Shown here piece by piece: positions 44,570-51,662 of a stretch of DNA of 64,000 bases (within the stretch, counting starts at the first letter, position 1; the number at the start of each line of letters is the position of its first letter). Made by a program: the position numbers and the translations under genes. Source of the DNA: an uncultured Clostridia bacterium (GTDB taxonomy: Bacteria; Bacillota; Clostridia; TANB77; CAG-508); the NCBI GenBank assembly GCA_947594935.1, contig CANQEM010000002.1, forward strand, positions 3,100-67,099, in the 5' to 3' direction. The notes below the pieces were generated by a model. It made no database searches, was not told the DNA's origin, and saw nothing but the letters and a program-made list of their open reading frames with translations.

Positions 44570-47500
44570 TTATTCAATGACATCATCGTCAGAATCGAAA
44601 ATATCTTCATCATCTTCGTCATCTAAATCACCAAAAAGCTCGTCATCATCTTCTAACATCATGTCTTCATCTTCCAAGTTCTCGTCTATGAAGTTGTCTT
44701 CTAGTTCGCCTTCATTATCTCCTGTGAAGTCTTCTTGTGATAACATTTTCTTTTCTTGCTCTGGGTCATATTCAATTCCGTCTTCAATATTTTCTTTTAA
44801 TTCTAGTTCTTGATTATCTTCTGAATATAGTTTTACATCTAAGCCCAAAGATTGTAATTCTTTTACTAGCACTTTAAAGCTTTCTGGTATACCTGGTTCT
44901 GGTATATTTTCGCCTTTAACAATTGCTTCGTAAGTTTTTACTCTTCCGACTATATCATCAGATTTTACTGTTAACATTTCTTGTAATGTGTATGCTGCTC
45001 CATAGGCCTCTAATGCCCAAACTTCCATTTCTCCGAAACGTTGTCCACCGAATTGTGCTTTACCACCAAGTGGTTGTTGTGTTACTAGTGAGTATGGTCC
45101 TGTTGAACGAGCATGTATTTTATCGTCTACTAAGTGATGTAGTTTTAACATGTACATTACGCCGACTGTAACTGGTTTTGCAAATGGATCTCCGGTACGT
45201 CCATCATATAGGATAGATTTTCCGTCTGCACTCATTCCGGCTTCTTTCAAGATTTCTTCAACATCTTGTTGTGTTGCACCATCAAATACTGGTGTTGAAA
45301 CATGCCATCCAAGTGCTTTTGCTGCTCCACCTAAGTGTACTTCTAAGATTTGACCTAAGTTCATACGAGATGGAACACCTAGTGGGTTTAATAAAATATC
45401 GATTGGTGTACCATCTGGTAAAAATGGCATATCTTCTTCTGGTAATACTCTTGAAATAACACCTTTATTTCCGTGGCGTCCAGCCATTTTATCACCAACT
45501 GAGATTTTTCTCTTTGTTGCAATATAACATCTGATTATTTGATTTACGCCTGGTCCTAGTTCGTCTGAATTTTCTCTTGTAAATATCCTTACATCTACTA
45601 TTGTTCCAGCTTCTCCATGAGGAACACGTAAAGAAGTGTCTCTAACTTCTCTTGCTTTTTCTCCAAAGATTGCTCTTAAAAGTCTTTCTTCTGCTGTTAA
45701 TTCAGTTTCTCCTTTTGGAGTTACTTTACCTACCAAAATGTCTCCTGGTCTAACTTCTGCACCTATTCTGATAATTCCGTTTTCGTCAAGGTCTTTTAAA
45801 ACATCATCACCAACATTTGGTATGTCTCTTGTGATTTCCTCTGGACCTAATTTTGTATCACGGCATTCGCAATCATATTCTTCAATGTGAATTGATGTGA
45901 ATACATCTTCTTTGACTAGTCTTTCATTTAACAAAATAGCATCTTCGTAGTTGTAACCTTCCCATGTAGAGAATGCAACTAATACGTTTTTACCAAGTGA
46001 CATTTCCCCATCTTTTGTTGCTGGACCGTCTGCAATTGCGTCACCTTTCTTAACTATTTCGCCTTTTTTTACTATTGGTTTTTGGTTGATACATGTTCCA
46101 CCATTTGTTCTCTTGAATTTACGCAATTTATGTACAACTGTTTTTCCGTTTTGATATTTAACAGTGATTGCATCACCTGTTACTTTTTCTATAACTCCGT
46201 CATCTTCTGCTAACACTAATATTCCAGAATCTTTTGCTGCTCTGTATTCTATACCTGTTGCAACAATTGGTCTTTCTGTTATCATTAGAGGTACAGCTTG
46301 ACGTTGCATGTTTGCACCCATCAATGATCTTTTTGCATCATCATGCTCTAAGAATGGTATCATGGCTGCTGCAATTGATACTAGTTGTTTTGGTGAAACA
46401 TCAATATATTGTACTTGGTCTTTATCAACTTCGATAATGTCGTTTTTGTAACGTACTCTAATTCTATCATTGATAAATTCGCCTTTTTTGTTCATTGGTT
46501 CTGATGCTTGTGCGATTATGTAGTTATCTTCTACATCTGCACTCATGTATTCTACAATGTCTGTTGCTCTATGTGTTTTTGGGTCAATTTTTCTGTATGG
46601 TGTTTCAATAAAGCCATATTCATTGATATTTGCAAATGAAGAAAGTGCTGAGATTAAGCCTATGTTTGGTCCTTCTGGTGATTCAATTGGGCATAATCTA
46701 CCATAGTGTGTATAGTGAACATCACGTACTTCGAAACCAGCTCTTTCTCTTGTTAAACCACCAGGTCCTAATGCTGAAATTCTTCTTTTATGTGTTAGTT
46801 CTGATAATGGGTTTGTTTGATCCATGAATTGTGATAGTTGTGAACTTCCAAAGAATTCTTTTATTGCTGATGTAATTGGTTTTGTGTTTATTAAAGTTTG
46901 TGGTGTTACAACATCTAGGTCTTGAATTGTCATTCTTTCACGTACAACTCTTTCTAATCTTGCTAAACCAATTCTAAATTGATTTTGTAAAAGTTCTCCT
47001 ACACAACGAATTCTACGGTTTGATAAGTGGTCAATGTCATCTGGTTTTCCAAGACCATGTGATAAGTTTAATAAATAGTTTACTGATGCTATCATGTCAT
47101 CAATTGTGATATGTTTTGGAACTAATTCGTCATATCTTTCTTTCATCATTTTTACTAAGTCTTTTTTGTCTGTATGGTCAATGATGTTTTTCAATATTTC
47201 ATAATTTACATCTTCTTTGAAGTGTAAGCTACTTAAATCAACATTTGGTAGAACTTTGTGTGGGTTTACTGTTCCGTTTCCGATAATTCTGATTGTTTTT
47301 TCGCCTAATAAAATATCAACTATGTTAATACCTGAATTTTGTATGTTGTCTGCTACTTCTTCTGTGATTACTTCACCTGCTTGTGCAAAAACTTCACCTG
47401 TTTCACTGTTTACAACATCTTTTGCTGCTATTTTGCCTTTAATTCTTCCTGCTAGACCTAATTTTTGGTTGAATTTGTATCTTCCTACTTTTGCTAGGTC

Positions 47501-48298
47501 ATATCTTCTGTCATCATAAAATAGACCACTGAATAGGCTTTTTGCAGCTTCAACTGTTGGAAGTTCTCCTGGTCTTAGTTTTTTATAGATTTCTATTAAA
47601 GCGTCTTCTTGATTTTTGATTGGGTCTTTTTCGATTGTTGCTTTAAGCATTTCTTCTTCCCCAAACAATTCACGAATTTGGTCATCACTAATTACACCTA
47701 TTGCGCGTAATAGGGTTGTAACTGGTACTTTTCTGGTACGGTCAACACGAACCCAGAAAATGTCGTTTCCATCTGTTTCATATTCTAGCCATGCTCCTCT
47801 GAGTGGCATAACTGTTGATGTATAAGTCTTTTTTCCTGTTTTTGTGTCAAAGATTTCATCATAGTAGCATCCTGGTGAACGTACTAATTGGCTAACAACA
47901 ACTCTTTCTGCTCCGTTTATAATAAATGTTCCACTGTCAGTCATCAATGGGAAATCTCCAAGATATATTTCTTGTTCTTTGATTTCTCCTGTTTCACGGT
48001 TGATTAACCTAACTTTTACATGTAGTCTGCTTGAATATGTTGCGTCTCTTTCTTTTGCTTCCTCTAATGAATATTTTGTTTTGTCTTCCATGTAATAGTC
48101 AAAAAATTCAAGAACAAGATTTCCAGAATAATCTTCTATTGGTGATATATCTTTTAATACTTCGCCTAGTCCTTCTTCTACAAACCAGTTGTATGAATCT
48201 TTTTGTACTTTGATTAGGTTTGGCATTTCGATAAAATCTCCAACTTTTGCGAAATCTTTTCTTGAAGCTTTTTCGTATTGGATGTCTTTTAGTTTCAA
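44570..48298 (-). CDS. rpoB: DNA-directed RNA polymerase subunit beta (with an acidic C-terminal tail of about 75 aa)
   Basis: Conserved RpoB blocks throughout. Probable TTG start at 48296-48298, 8 nt after AAGGAG. The track GTG at 48307 abuts the RBS. Confidence 0.97.
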
Positions 48299-48501
48299 AA
48301 AAATCACTCCTTATTTATTATTAAAGCAGAATGAATTTATTTGATTTTAGGAAAAGTCCTTCTTAGCTTATAGCTCTTATAAAGTTTCGGAAAATGTCTG
48401 CTTCCCATCTTCTTCTACTTTATGGGGTTCTATACCTAATTCCTCTTCCCCTAAAAAGAAAATCGATTTATATTAAATTTTGAATAAATGTTACAAGGAA
48501 T

Positions 48502-48531
48502 ATTATATCAAATTTTGCTTACGGAAGTCAA
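48502..48531 (-). promoter_or_regulatory. rpoB promoter (leader of about 190 nt)
   Basis: Minus strand: TTGACT (48526-48531), 18-nt spacer, TATAAT (48502-48507). Confidence 0.6.
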
Positions 48532-48553
48532 GCTTTTTGAAGAAATTTTTTTA

Positions 48554-48569
48554 TTTTTTTTGATATTGT
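48554..48569. repeat. Left copy of the perfect 16-bp direct repeat TTTTTTTTGATATTGT
   Basis: Exact match to 49550-49565. Flanking bases differ on both sides (a/t versus c/g). Confidence 0.9.
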
Positions 48570-48583
48570 TTCAATCTCCAAAA

Positions 48584-48613
48584 TTGGACATTTTACATAA
48601 AATATGGTATAAT
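48584..48613 (+). promoter_or_regulatory. Extended -10 promoter of the cassette gene
   Basis: TTGGAC (48584-48589), 18-nt spacer, TGgTATAAT (48605-48613). Confidence 0.6.
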
Positions 48614-48689
48614 ATATGTAGTGTAACCCTTATATTCTTGCCTTTTTTGGCAGGTTGACATAGAAAACATTATAAAAGGAGGAAAGAAT

Positions 48690-49490
48690 ATGAAAATCAA
48701 AGAATTAAGGCGGTGGTTTTCTACTACCATCGCAACAGTTGCGAAAAAGAGGAAGGATTCCACATTTCTGGCTGTCAGCCTTTTAGTGCTATATTTGTTA
48801 GCGCTTATATTCCTGGTTGGTGTATACAAGAATAGCTTCGGCTGGGGCGTAATTCTAGGCGTTTGCATTTGTCTAATAATCTACGCCGTCCAGAAGAGGG
48901 ACACTCTATTCAAGAAAAAGCCAAAATTCACATTTCCGACCAACGTAAGGATGAAGTACGTTGGTATTTACGAGCAAGTTGGGGTGGAAGCTGTGAAGGT
49001 CCTTAATGAGATGCCAAAAGAGGACCGACAAGCACTGCAACTAGTCGACAACAAGTCTTATTCATATCTGTTGATTTTTGACAAATACTTGAATGAGGTT
49101 TGGCAGACTTGGTTCGAAGATGTAGCACGAGCTGCTTGTCTTGTAGTTAGCCTGATGGAGAGACCGGTCATAGATACGAAATTATCATATGACTTTAACA
49201 CTCCAACGGCATCTGAGTACGAGCAGTATCGAGAGATTATCTTCGACTTTGCGTTAAGATGTGGATGCCTCAACTTGGGGATAGACTTCGAGTCTGTCAA
49301 GAGTGAGGAGCGTCTGTACAACATGCTTTTCCACTCTGTTTCAACACTCGCTCGTCAGAAGCCAAACGAGCAGAGTCTATCGGTTCTCATTGATATGTTC
49401 CACTATGTAAAAGAGGAAACTCTTTACTGGGATACGGATGATGAGGACTATGACTATGACGAAGACGCTGTTGAGGGTAGCAACGAATAA
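48690..49490 (+). CDS. Unknown 266-aa membrane-tethered protein: two N-terminal TM helices, helical cytoplasmic domain of about 185 aa, Asp/Glu/Tyr-rich tail
   Basis: AAAGGAGG RBS 7 nt before the ATG. TM helices at aa 26-46 and 52-67, flanked by Lys/Arg clusters. C-terminus YWDTDDEDYDYDEDAVEGSNE. No family recognised. About 43-47% GC versus about 30% in neighbours (hand counts). Confidence 0.85.
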   Translation: MKIKELRRWFSTTIATVAKKRKDSTFLAVSLLVLYLLALIFLVGVYKNSFGWGVILGVCICLIIYAVQKRDTLFKKKPKFTFPTNVRMKYVGIYEQVGVEAVKVLNEMPKEDRQALQLVDNKSYSYLLIFDKYLNEVWQTWFEDVARAACLVVSLMERPVIDTKLSYDFNTPTASEYEQYREIIFDFALRCGCLNLGIDFESVKSEERLYNMLFHSVSTLARQKPNEQSLSVLIDMFHYVKEETLYWDTDDEDYDYDEDAVEGSNE

Positions 49491-49500
49491 AATTCTTTAC

Positions 49501-49541
49501 CCCCACGTGCATTGCACGTGGGGTGTTTCTCTTTTTCTTTT
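49501..49541 (+). terminator. Strong GC-rich rho-independent terminator of the cassette gene
   Basis: CCCCACGTGC-att-GCACGTGGGG perfect 10-bp stem followed by TGTTTCTCTTTTTCTTTT. Confidence 0.85.
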
Positions 49542-49544
49542 CCA

Positions 49545-49573
49545 TTGACTTTTTTTTGATATTGTGATATATA
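49545..49573 (+). promoter_or_regulatory. Promoter of the MNT gene; its -35 box straddles the cassette/repeat junction
   Basis: TTGACT (49545-49550), 17-nt spacer, TGaTATATA extended -10 (49565-49573). Confidence 0.55.
49550..49565. repeat. Right copy of the perfect 16-bp direct repeat TTTTTTTTGATATTGT
   Basis: Exact match to 48554-48569, 996 bp away. Confidence 0.9.
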
Positions 49574-49606
49574 CTTATAAGAGTTTTAGAAAGGAGATGT
49601 TTTTAT

Positions 49607-49954
49607 ATGCAGGTATTACCAGATAATATTGAGATGATTGTAAATGAATTTGTAAATAATGCGGTTGAATTACTTGGAAATCATTTAAAGCAAATAATTT
49701 TATATGGTTCTTATGCAAGAGGCGATTTTAATTCTAATTCTGACATTGATATTATGATATTAGTTGATCTGGAAGATAAAGAACTTGAAAAAAAGTCTGA
49801 TGAGATTGTTGAGATGGCTTATGATATAGAGGCAAATAATGATTTTTTAATACATTTATCCCCTTTAGTAAAAAATATCGATTCATTTAATTATTGGTTG
49901 GATACAATACCTTTTTATATGAACGTTAAGAGGGAAGGAGTGCCTCTACATTGA
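49607..49954 (+). CDS. Minimal nucleotidyltransferase (MNT/pol-beta superfamily), no adjacent HEPN gene
   Basis: LYGSYARGDFNSNSDIDIMILVD matches the GS-x10-DxD motif. 115 aa. RBS AAAGGAG. Confidence 0.8.
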   Translation: MQVLPDNIEMIVNEFVNNAVELLGNHLKQIILYGSYARGDFNSNSDIDIMILVDLEDKELEKKSDEIVEMAYDIEANNDFLIHLSPLVKNIDSFNYWLDTIPFYMNVKREGVPLH

Positions 49955-50004
49955 GGTATATCTGCATATAAAAAATTATAAAGACTAAAAAATGAAAGGG
50001 TGCT

Positions 50005-50511
50005 TTGGGTATGTCAGCTTTACCGCTTTTTGTTAAGTATTTATTAACTGGGTTTATTGGAATGATTCCTATTATTGAGCTTAGGGGGGCAATTCCTGTG
50101 GGAGTATTTACTTTCCACTTAAATTATTTAGAGTCGTTTCTTTGTAGTTTTATTGGAAATATCATTCCTGTTTATTTTATAGTTAAATTCATACGTCCAT
50201 TATTTGATTTTTTTGGAAGATGGAAACCTTTTAAAGTTATTATTGACTGGGCTTCAAACAAGGCTACAAAAAATATTGAAAATAACCCTAGATTGCAAAA
50301 TTTTGCAGCTCTTGGACTATTTCTTTTTGTTGCAATCCCTTTACCTGGAACAGGTGCTTGGGTGGGTTCTTTAATTGCAAATTTCTTAGACTTGCCACCT
50401 AAAAAAGCAATCCCACCTATTATCATAGGTGTTCTAACTGCTGGAATTATAATTCTTATATTAACTGCAATTGCAAATGGTGGAATACAGTATTTGTTGC
50501 AAAGAGGATAA
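50005..50511 (+). CDS. Small membrane protein of the 'small multidrug export' (COG2426) family
   Basis: IPIIELRGAIPVG motif, 4-5 TM helices. The ATG at 50011 is an alternative start. Confidence 0.6.
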   Translation: MGMSALPLFVKYLLTGFIGMIPIIELRGAIPVGVFTFHLNYLESFLCSFIGNIIPVYFIVKFIRPLFDFFGRWKPFKVIIDWASNKATKNIENNPRLQNFAALGLFLFVAIPLPGTGAWVGSLIANFLDLPPKKAIPPIIIGVLTAGIIILILTAIANGGIQYLLQRG

Positions 50512-50515
50512 TTTT

Positions 50516-50546
50516 AAAAGGAAGCCAGTGAAACTTCCTTTTTTTA
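50516..50546. terminator. Bidirectional terminator between convergent genes
   Basis: AAAAGGAAG-9 nt-CTTCCTTTT with a T-run. Confidence 0.6.
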
Positions 50547-51662
50547 TGCTTTTGGAGTAACAAAATCCTCCATTATTAACTTAATTACTGCTGCTACTGG
50601 CACCGCTAAAAACATTCCGATTATTCCAAAGTATGCTCCACCTACTGTTACTGCAAAGATTACTAGTAGTGGACTTATTTTTAGTGAATTTCCTATTATT
50701 TTTGGATTGATTATATTTGCATCTATTTGTTGTAAAACAATAACTGAAATTGCCATTACAACTGTTTGACCTACACCGCCAGTTATAAATGTGATGATTA
50801 TTGCAATTATTACAGCAATAATTGCACCAATATATGGAATAATATTAAATAGTCCTATCATAAAGCCTAGTAACGGTGCATATTTTACACCAATAATGCT
50901 CATTGCTATTGTTGCTAAAATTCCAATTATGATTGCATCGATTACTTGGCTACCTACAAATTTAAAAAATAGTTCATTTGCTTGACCAAAGTATTTATCT
51001 AGATGTTTGTATGTTTTTTCTCTTAATAGTCTTTTTGCTAATTTCTTTAAGAAATTTTTGATTGATTCTCTCTGCAATAAAATGTATATTGATACTATTA
51101 TTGCTACAAACACATCAAATACTGCTAAAAATACATTAAATAAGTTTTGCACATATTCTAAAATTCGTTCATTGTTTAAACTTAATAATTCTGATATGTT
51201 GATTTCTTGTATATTCTGAACAATGCTCATTACAAGATCACTTTTGAAAAATGAATCTTCTGATATTTCACTTATTTTATGTATTGCTGTTTCATAATAG
51301 TTTTGTGCATTTGAAAATAGTTCAATTATGCTATCACGCAAGACTGGGAAAATTACATTTATTGCAATTGATAAAACCAAAATTGCAATGACATAGGTTG
51401 TTAGAACTGCTAAACCTCTTGCCTTTTTTTGAATGAATTTGATTTTACTTGTTTTATATGCTTTTTCAATTGCTCGTTCTGGTAGCATTAGAATATATGC
51501 AATAAAAATTCCAACTATGAATGGTCGTAGAACTCTAAAAAATGTGGCAAACCACTCTTGAACATTTCCAAAGTTGTCTAAGATTTTATAGGTAAGTATT
51601 CCCAGCACTATTAGTGATAGATTTGAAAACCACCTTTTCCAGTTAATTTTTCCTTTTTCCAT
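50544..51662 (-). CDS. AI-2E family transporter (PerM-like permease)
   Basis: About 8 TM helices. C-terminal IIPYIGAIIAVI..LQQIDANIINPKIIGNSLKISPLLVIFAV block typical of the family. Confidence 0.8.
   Translation of the reverse strand: MEKGKINWKRWFSNLSLIVLGILTYKILDNFGNVQEWFATFFRVLRPFIVGIFIAYILMLPERAIEKAYKTSKIKFIQKKARGLAVLTTYVIAILVLSIAINVIFPVLRDSIIELFSNAQNYYETAIHKISEISEDSFFKSDLVMSIVQNIQEINISELLSLNNERILEYVQNLFNVFLAVFDVFVAIIVSIYILLQRESIKNFLKKLAKRLLREKTYKHLDKYFGQANELFFKFVGSQVIDAIIIGILATIAMSIIGVKYAPLLGFMIGLFNIIPYIGAIIAVIIAIIITFITGGVGQTVVMAISVIVLQQIDANIINPKIIGNSLKISPLLVIFAVTVGGAYFGIIGMFLAVPVAAVIKLIMEDFVTPKA

Follow-up and report, generated by a model that had tools for sequence, protein, structure and literature searches.

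In situ xenologous gene displacement, reportedly described by Omelchenko et al. in 2003, is said to replace a gene by a distant homologue while the neighbouring genes stay native. Phage morons are units composed of a promoter, an open reading frame (ORF) and a terminator, with deviant GC content. In the minimal mobile elements (MMEs) of Neisseria, as defined in the passage of PMC3082526 that cites Saunders & Snyder (2002) and Snyder et al. (2007), conserved genes flank whole-gene contents that differ between lineages, mobility genes are absent, and inserts of atypical composition are presumed to be exchanged via their homologous flanks. Here, a locus resembling these systems was analyzed in a window of 64,000 nt, the whole stretch under study (contig CANQEM010000002.1 of assembly GCA_947594935.1), from an uncultured Clostridia bacterium. 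Its central element is gene X, a plus-strand ORF with its own promoter (P_X) and terminator, which lies between the divergent gene rpoB and the Sm_multidrug_ex membrane protein gene and is enclosed by two copies (DR1 and DR2) of a 16-bp direct repeat. The initial annotation had taken this 996-bp stretch for a horizontally inserted cassette. Comparison with sister genomes speaks against an insertion of these 996 bp as an element. We assign a probability of about 0.5 to the reading that X is a resident hypervariable locus, the coding segment of which is, in this genome, a recently imported xenologous allele under a native promoter.

The compositionally foreign character of the ORF, proposed initially from hand-counted blocks, was borne out when GC, codon usage and codon adaptation were computed. 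The genome carrying the window has 32% GC, and the ORF of gene X has a GC content of 0.431. Its GC content at third codon positions (GC3) is 0.502, compared with 0.201 ± 0.028 (maximum 0.259) in the 40 other genes (z = 10.8), and ranges from 0.40 to 0.63 in each 30-codon block. Third positions are used near-uniformly (A.23, C.24, G.27, T.27), the codon adaptation index (CAI) is 0.319 vs 0.711 ± 0.060 in the other genes (z -6.5), the effective number of codons (Nc) is 58.4 vs a mean of 35.7, and each of the six leucine codons is used 3-6 times. GC3 is normal (0.20-0.21) in the two co-oriented neighbours, the Sm_multidrug_ex gene and an MNT-type nucleotidyltransferase gene. Along the unit, GC content is 0.22 in the promoter (48570-48619), 0.33 in the 5' untranslated region (UTR), 0.43 in the ORF, 0.70 in the terminator stem and 0.31 past the stem. 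The foreign composition thus covers approximately 48690-49523: it begins 120-140 nt inside DR1 and stops about 27 nt before DR2.

Homologues were sought by scanning all 1.8 billion representatives with phmmer. Beside P0001, a 98% strain variant of window X, three distant homologues were found (P0123, 300 aa; P0124, 253 aa; P0125, 185 aa) that share 26-32% identity with the window protein (E-values 2e-14 to 2e-9), so that the family has five known members. P0123 and P0124 are encoded by two metagenome-assembled genomes (MAGs) from NCBI, L095 (GCA_947627605.1) and L096 (GCA_947628925.1), to which the window is more closely related than to the 80 GTDB loci described below. In both, the homologue, 28-33% identical to X, occupies the same place as X in the order rpoC-rpoB (minus), homologue (plus), Sm_multidrug_ex (plus), AI-2E (minus) and Exo (minus). 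Among the three loci, identity is 95.6-95.7% for RpoB, 90-95% for Sm_multidrug_ex, 83-89% for AI-2E and 86-87% for Exo, compared with 26-43% for X in every pair; gene X is 3-4 times more diverged than its surroundings. The other X alleles show a mildly raised GC3 (0.22-0.28 vs 0.12-0.22 in their host neighbours), and a GC3 of 0.50 is confined to the window allele and its 98% variant. In window X, amino-acid usage is likewise shifted toward residues with GC-rich codons: the R/(K+R) ratio is 0.38 vs 0.17-0.24 in the other alleles, and the fraction of Gly, Ala, Arg and Pro (GARP) is 0.154 vs 0.086-0.138.

A fourth allele class, P0125, is located on contig L097 (ENA ERZ27249451) and is 43% identical to the L095 allele. 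L097 originates from the same metagenome sample as L003, a contig with the window allele; therefore, different X alleles co-exist in one community.

Outside the ORF, the window can be aligned with the sister loci on both sides of X. The segment comprising promoter and 5' UTR (48570-48689) gave local alignments with z 16.4 to the sequence upstream of the L096 homologue and z 6.8 to that upstream of the L095 homologue. Within it, the P_X core (48582-48625, TGGACATTTTACATAA..TGGTATAATATAT.TAGT) is identical to L096 at 34 of 39 positions by eye, and the P_X spacer TTTACATAAA is conserved in L096 and also in L095, a degree of conservation beyond that expected from promoter function alone. Past the terminator, 49524-49606 aligned with the region downstream of the L096 homologue (z 10.1). 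This region harbors a promoter, ATTGAC-N15-TGATATATA, which is orthologous to L096 (ATTGAC...TGATATATAA, 33/40 identical by eye), and window ATTGACTTTTTTTTGATATTGTGATATATACTTATAA matches L096 ATTGACTTTTTTATTATATTATGATATATAATTATAA (by eye). In L096 and L095 this promoter drives Sm_multidrug_ex; TTGAC-N15-TGATATA is present at the same place in L010, a relative without X, and the N15 spacing is kept in L095 and L096. The terminator stems of L095 and L096 differ from that of the window, and their position is the same. The ORF DNA compared with either sister gene did not rise above noise level and is unalignable. Judged from these alignments, 48570-48689, 49544-49549 and DR2 itself are orthologous to native L096 sequence. 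A repeat-bounded cassette in an empty site, as initially proposed, finds no support, given both the homologues at the same locus in L095 and L096 and the native ends. The possibility that P_X is a copy of the Sm_multidrug_ex promoter of relatives without X was dropped (local alignments z <= 2.5).

The repeat itself was described accurately in the initial annotation: the window contains exactly two copies of the 16-mer TTTTTTTTGATATTGT, with a period of 996 bp. About 1.4 Mb of related loci hold no copy, same-species contigs excepted. The longest exact match between the upstream flank (48308-48689) and the downstream flank (49491-49606) of the ORF is 16 nt; matches of at least this length had P = 0.0003 in 3000 dinucleotide shuffles, and flank matches around the 40 other genes reach 11 nt at most. 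About 12 chance pairs of 16-mers are expected in a 64-kb window of the same composition, and 0.7 within 2 kb. Hence, the mere presence of a 16-mer repeat in an AT-/T-rich window is unremarkable, and it is the flanking configuration that is remarkable. No flanking repeat was found in the L095 and L096 loci, in which the longest common flank matches (11 and 10 nt) are at chance level. By eye, the L096 counterpart of DR1 is a T-rich stretch with roughly 12/16 identical positions, that of DR2 is TTTTTTATTATATTAT with 13/16, and the two counterparts share about 10/16 with each other.

DR2 is the spacer of the ancestral Sm_multidrug_ex promoter, and DR1 is located in native, T-rich DNA that separates the UP region of rpoB from P_X. 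The pentamers TCAAT (48571-48575) and ATTGA (49544-49548), regarded earlier as inverted termini, are present, offset by 1 nt from the repeats; they comprise only 5 bp, and their interpretation as a terminal inverted repeat (TIR) was not sustained, as the ATTGA of the right terminus belongs to the -35 box (ATTGAC) of the conserved promoter. The 16-mer has no dyad symmetry. Both 16-mers lie in native, T-rich promoter DNA, and we read them neither as a target-site duplication (TSD) nor as an att core, the two roles proposed for them initially. The repeat might be a side product, i.e. a short templated patch or gene conversion between T-rich promoter stretches, or a coincidence. DR2 as part of a toxin-antitoxin module was ruled out, the MNT upstream regions of MNT-HEPN relatives being unrelated.

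A scan with the RpoB N-terminus, using one genome per GTDB species, yielded the 80 loci mentioned above, all from uncultured Clostridia. Neither tblastn nor a family HMM detected a relative of the ORF in them. In 12 of the 80, Sm_multidrug_ex is directly divergent from rpoB over a spacer of 302-813 nt. In these loci, DNA homology to the window covers rpoB, its leader and its promoter, fades at about 48550-48565 and returns at 50010 in Sm_multidrug_ex. The spacer is highly variable between species and lacks the 16-mer in all of them (including L010, L025 and L041). Since Sm_multidrug_ex of the X-less relatives is divergent from rpoB with a variable spacer of 300-800 nt, the site is a variable hot spot, and the divergent rpoB/Sm_multidrug_ex spacer constitutes an insertion hot spot in related species. 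An empty site had been predicted to carry a single 16-mer, with the junction ...ATTTTTTTATTTTTTTTGATATTGTGATATATAC, i.e. precisely without 48570-49565. No such site was found among the 80 relatives, nor in phages, plasmids, IMG/VR or JGI metagenomes.

As side observations on this spacer, that of L010 (L010:1523-1997) contains a perfect palindrome of about 80 nt (GAACAAATAGGAACAAATAGGGACGGTTCTTTTTTGTCC...), and other inserts, 200-500 nt long, are present in the equivalent spacers of L034, L039 and L051.

Independent assemblies cover both junctions. In L006 (Logan, SRR29273031), which stems from a different run and carries an allele variant, rpoB, DR1, X, DR2 and MNT are located on one contig. 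L098 (ENA ERZ27060145) spans rpoB into X, and L001, L003 and L004 span X into MNT and Sm_multidrug_ex, so that the left junction is seen in L006 and L098 and the right junction in L001, L003, L004 and L006. An assembly chimera, in which a foreign read cluster was mis-joined upstream of rpoB, could have been suspected from the contigs of this low-coverage organism, which often end inside gene X (L001, L003, L004), but it is refuted by these assemblies, and X homologues at the same locus in the two NCBI MAGs argue against it as well.

The window and L006 differ within X by 7 synonymous and 4 nonsynonymous substitutions (dN/dS ~0.2), and gene X is functional and under purifying selection. In total, 48572-49472 contains 14 differences, compared with a single one in about 650 nt of flanking DNA (Fisher p 0.007); therefore the segment has its own history. 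In the same-species contig L098, the same X allele lacks 74 nt (equivalent to window 48851-48924) between two AATTC pentamers; this deletion causes a frameshift past residue 55 and the loss of the second transmembrane (TM) helix. It represents either a knock-out that arose naturally or an error in an assembly of low coverage (2.5).

A donor, further copies and mobility genes were looked for. No donor or higher-GC homologue of X was found in 5.8 billion proteins and 1.8 billion representatives, nor in JGI metagenomes, IMG/VR, phages and plasmids. The searches of the latter four collections, in which DNA, protein, profile, P_X, terminator and predicted empty-site patterns were used, revealed neither X nor its DNA; a 40-nt phage match (E 7e-3) was noise. 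Exact-protein look-ups gave no record for X and RpoB, and for Sm_multidrug_ex same-strain contigs only. A second copy of the X unit is absent from the window, 98 loci, phages, plasmids, IMG/VR and JGI metagenomes. The unit contains no recombinase domain on either strand, consistent with the initial annotation, which had listed neither recombinase nor transposase in it, and no integrase or transposase remnant was detected. There is no tRNA in the 64 kb, no repeat of the ORF within the window and no intI nearby; an attC architecture is missing, the sole 3' structure being the perfect 10-bp terminator hairpin. No reverse transcriptase and no repeats of a diversity-generating retroelement (DGR) were seen near the locus, the window not having been scanned exhaustively for either.

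Taken together, these results are consistent with the following scenario. A small clade of uncultured gut Clostridia keeps the X unit, consisting of native promoter, 5' UTR, ORF and terminator, at a site with the divergent rpoB promoter on one side and that of Sm_multidrug_ex on the other. In the lineage of the window, the coding segment together with the terminator stem (~48690-49523) would be a fairly recent import from a gene pool richer in G+C. Entry probably occurred by recombination that preserved native DNA at either end, namely the promoter and ribosome-binding site (RBS) to the left and the downstream promoter to the right, as an in situ gene displacement resembling an MME. The strong native P_X would then drive transcription of X as far as its own hairpin, a consensus RBS would serve its translation, and the Sm_multidrug_ex promoter would restart transcription for MNT and Sm_multidrug_ex. 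Recombination in the flanks has indirect support from the native ends and the excess divergence of the segment between two strains.

Several points weigh against such an import. A sharp recombination breakpoint is lacking, as identity decays gradually over the UTR, and the N-terminus of X (MK..WF) still looks homologous to P0124. The sample comprises five family members and three complete loci only. The failure to find a donor in any of the collections searched counts against it as well. In addition, the first intraspecies difference lies 3 nt past DR1, which would also fit an exchange unit bounded by the repeats, and the exact 16-bp repeat, improbable by chance (P ~3e-4), has no role in a model of allele import.

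The latter two points belong to the evidence for a recombinase-less 996-bp cassette placed by a trans-acting transposase or integrase, with the 16-mer as TSD or att core, or for cassettes repeatedly swapped at such a core. The perfect repeat, unique to its two sites, encloses the one compositional outlier of the window, where the next best gene reaches 11 nt, and the rpoB-Sm_multidrug_ex spacer is an insertion hot spot in relatives. However, both inner ends and DR2 are orthologous to native L096 DNA, the -35 sequence ATTGAC left of DR2 keeps its N15 distance to TGATATA in L096, L095 and the X-less L010, and the foreign composition stops short of the repeats, which moreover have no equivalent around the genes of L095 and L096. 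The 5-bp inverted termini, the 16-mer without dyad symmetry and the absence of a second copy, a tRNA, an integrase or transposase remnant and, among the 80 relatives, an empty site with the 16-mer add to this, and we consider such a cassette very unlikely.

In the case of hyper-divergence in place without horizontal transfer, a vertically inherited X would evolve at tens of times the rate of its neighbours through a nearly unbiased, locus-specific mutation process that pushes third positions toward 25% each in the lineage of the window, a candidate being a process coupled to strong head-on transcription. It would account for the nearly uniform third positions and an Nc of 58, the similar distance between all X alleles behind a conserved promoter, the synonymous divergence between near-identical strains far above that of the flanks, the rise of GC along the transcribed unit from 0.33 in the UTR to 0.43 in the ORF, the location of X on the lagging-strand side behind an 11/12 consensus promoter, and the missing donor in the collections searched. 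Against it, a more than 20-fold, gene-wide and unbiased hypermutation matches no known bacterial mechanism, and nothing resembling a reverse transcriptase or DGR repeats was noted near the locus in a window not scanned exhaustively for them. The MNT and Sm_multidrug_ex neighbours have a normal GC3, Sm_multidrug_ex being 90-95% conserved, the GC3 of the sister alleles is just 0.22-0.28, and dN/dS of ~0.2 reflects ordinary constraint. We therefore regard hyper-divergence in place as unlikely. Still less credence is given to two bolder versions of these ideas: that the 16-mer is the genuine core of a recombinase-less 'one-slot' exchange system, in which the clade would swap promoter-capped single-gene cassettes of one hypervariable family at a fixed position beside the rpoB promoter through a trans-acting enzyme encoded elsewhere, or that unbiased hypermutation is targeted to this one transcription unit; together they rank marginally below the very unlikely cassette. 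The import of a xenologous allele at a resident locus remains the reading we prefer.

To understand the possible function of X, its sequence and predicted structure were inspected. The N-terminus is basic (MKIKELRRW...KKRKDS) and is followed by hydrophobic (TM) helices at ~26-46 and ~50-68 and by further basic residues (QKRDTLFKKKPKF). From this arrangement, the positive-inside rule predicts an N-in/C-in hairpin, the C-terminal domain of which would be cytoplasmic. An all-helical domain, predicted to be cytoplasmic, covers ~84-249, and an acidic tail is present. An AlphaFold2 (AF2) model based on the five-sequence alignment had a predicted local distance difference test (pLDDT) score of 70 overall and of 76-92 over most of residues 90-240, whereas the single-sequence model (pLDDT 44) was not usable. 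With the pLDDT 70 model, Foldseek returned nothing significant (best E 0.59 in PDB and 0.21 in BFVD), and Pfam, NCBIfam, PADLOC, PHROG and PDB gave no match to X except TM-helix noise. Conserved motifs are L..SLME.P and T(A/S)SE(F/Y)E(Q/E), and X alleles differ in how many N-terminal TM helices they have and in the acidic tail. In the antisense ORFs inside X no domain was found. Because X is hypervariable and adjoins toxin-antitoxin debris, a function of the conflict type, e.g. phage exclusion or immunity, might be guessed. Loci of such a kind are a typical signature of conflict genes (phage, toxin, immunity) and of allele exchange across species.

The features of the locus are compiled in Table 1. 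The complete plus-strand unit listed in the initial annotation was recovered, with promoter, RBS, ORF and terminator, 8 of the 10 bp in the terminator stem being GC pairs. The rarity of such an orientation was likewise reproduced: four plausible plus-strand genes were counted in the 64 kb, and 37 of the 41 genes lie on the other strand, among them rpoB and rpoC. The rpoB promoter is conserved in L095, L096 and the 80 relatives. The distance between the repeat and this promoter was as described, DR1 starting 22 nt upstream of the -35 box, but the suggested replacement of the UP-element region does not apply, since -40 to -60 (48535-48555) is retained and conserved. The ancestral Sm_multidrug_ex promoter was not flagged in the consensus promoter scan of the window. 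The hairpin in the 5' UTR of X was rejected as an RNA element, being small and weak (5 pairs, 1 compensatory), with a position common to L095 and L096; Rfam gave no match in 47800-50600.

Table 1. Coordinates of the features at the gene X locus (positions in the 64,000-nt window).
Feature	Position	Strand	Remark
rpoB CDS	44570-48307	minus	
rpoB promoter, TTGACT-18-TATAAT, TG-extended, 11/12	48531..48502	minus	divergent from gene X
DR1, first 16-mer copy	48554-48569	+	-59..-74 of rpoB promoter; P_X -35 box 15 nt downstream
P_X, promoter of gene X, TGGACA-17-TATAAT with TG, 11/12 matches	48585-48613	+	
Gene X 5' UTR, small hairpin and RBS	48620-48689	+	
UTR hairpin arms	CTTGCC 48637-48642 / GGCAGG 48649-48654	+	
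Gene X RBS AAAGGAGG	48675-48682	+	7 nt ahead of ATG at 48690
Gene X ORF, 801 nt, 266 aa, compositionally foreign segment	48690-49490	+	
Gene X intrinsic terminator, 10-bp GC-rich stem, then T-rich tail	49501-49541 (stem 49501-49523)	+	
Ancestral Sm_multidrug_ex promoter, TTGACT-17-TGaTATATA, spacer = DR2	49545-49573	+	now upstream of MNT
DR2, second 16-mer copy	49550-49565	+	
Solo MNT-type nucleotidyltransferase, antitoxin without HEPN	49607-49954	+	between Sm_multidrug_ex promoter and RBS
Sm_multidrug_ex membrane protein gene	50011-50511	+	conserved right-hand anchor of locus

Two neighbouring regions deserve a comment. The MNT gene, which the locus acquired in this genome, has its nearest relatives (73-75% identity) in MNT-HEPN pairs at unrelated loci, and a 17-nt inverted repeat encloses it (49600-49616 / 49958-49974, 94% complementary). 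It parts the ancestral Sm_multidrug_ex promoter from the Sm_multidrug_ex RBS, which points to an older insertion of its own and a later loss of the toxin. On the rpoB side, the annotated start codon (GTG, 48307) falls within the conserved RBS AAGGAGTG (window 48296-48307). The real start is probably a TTG about 10 nt further downstream (MKLKDIQ...), because tblastn matches start at residue 4. In the rpoB leader (48308-48455, minus), the boxes AAGAGGAATT, AGCAG, AAGAAGGACTT, TCTGCTT and AAGGAGTG are invariant in 19 related species and separated by variable, hairpin-prone spacers, with no match in Rfam. AGCAG and CTGCT would be able to form a long-range helix; as both are invariant, they offer no covariation evidence. 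The leader may represent an undescribed cis-regulatory leader of rpoBC in this clade.

The locus shares single traits with several known types of mobile or variable DNA. Like a moron, X is an autonomous module of deviant G+C content between two other transcription units; a moron was rejected, as X is not in a prophage, has no phage genes or matches nearby and has a promoter that is native rather than imported. A short direct repeat on either side of a recombinase-less unit recalls cis-mobilizable or integrative and mobilizable elements (CIMEs/IMEs) and miniature inverted-repeat transposable elements (MITEs). CIMEs/IMEs were rejected given repeats in orthologous native DNA, native ends and the lack of real TIRs, of other copies, of an empty site with the 16-mer among the 80 relatives and of a tRNA or gene-end target. 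A transposon or MITE with TSD was dismissed on account of the TIR of just 5 bp, the native inner ends (z 16.4, 10.1) and the absence of other copies. An integron gene cassette does not fit the strong promoter of X itself, the missing attC architecture and the absence of intI nearby, and a DGR target does not fit a divergence that is gene-wide and not limited to a short variable region (VR), with no repeat of the ORF in the window.

The locus is best assigned to in situ displacement, similar to an MME. With xenologous gene displacement, the locus has in common a conserved neighbourhood, a distant homologue with a foreign signature and native neighbours; the classic cases, in contrast, concern well-known enzymes with identifiable donor clades, whereas X belongs to an orphan family of five members. 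It also warns that a 'cassette with perfect direct repeats' can be illusory, the sister genomes placing the boundary of the foreign DNA at the ORF and not at the repeats. What remains of interest is an orphan, clade-restricted family with a membrane-anchored product without recognisable fold, fixed at a locus divergent from the rpoB promoter, one allele of which has essentially unbiased codon usage in a genome of 32% GC. The traits given at the outset for MMEs, i.e. conserved flanking genes around whole-gene contents that differ between lineages, absent mobility genes and an insert of atypical composition, have their likeness here, and exchange via homologous flanks would be presumed here too: between rpoB and Sm_multidrug_ex lie X alleles with 26-43% identity, and in other species the site is without X or holds palindromes or other inserts. 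Measured against that definition, the alternatives here are very divergent homologues of one family instead of unrelated cassettes, the conserved arms include the promoter of X itself and the next promoter, and the exchange itself is inferred. X is best regarded as a variable gene that occupies a replacement hot spot and was probably displaced in situ, coding for an orphan protein family.

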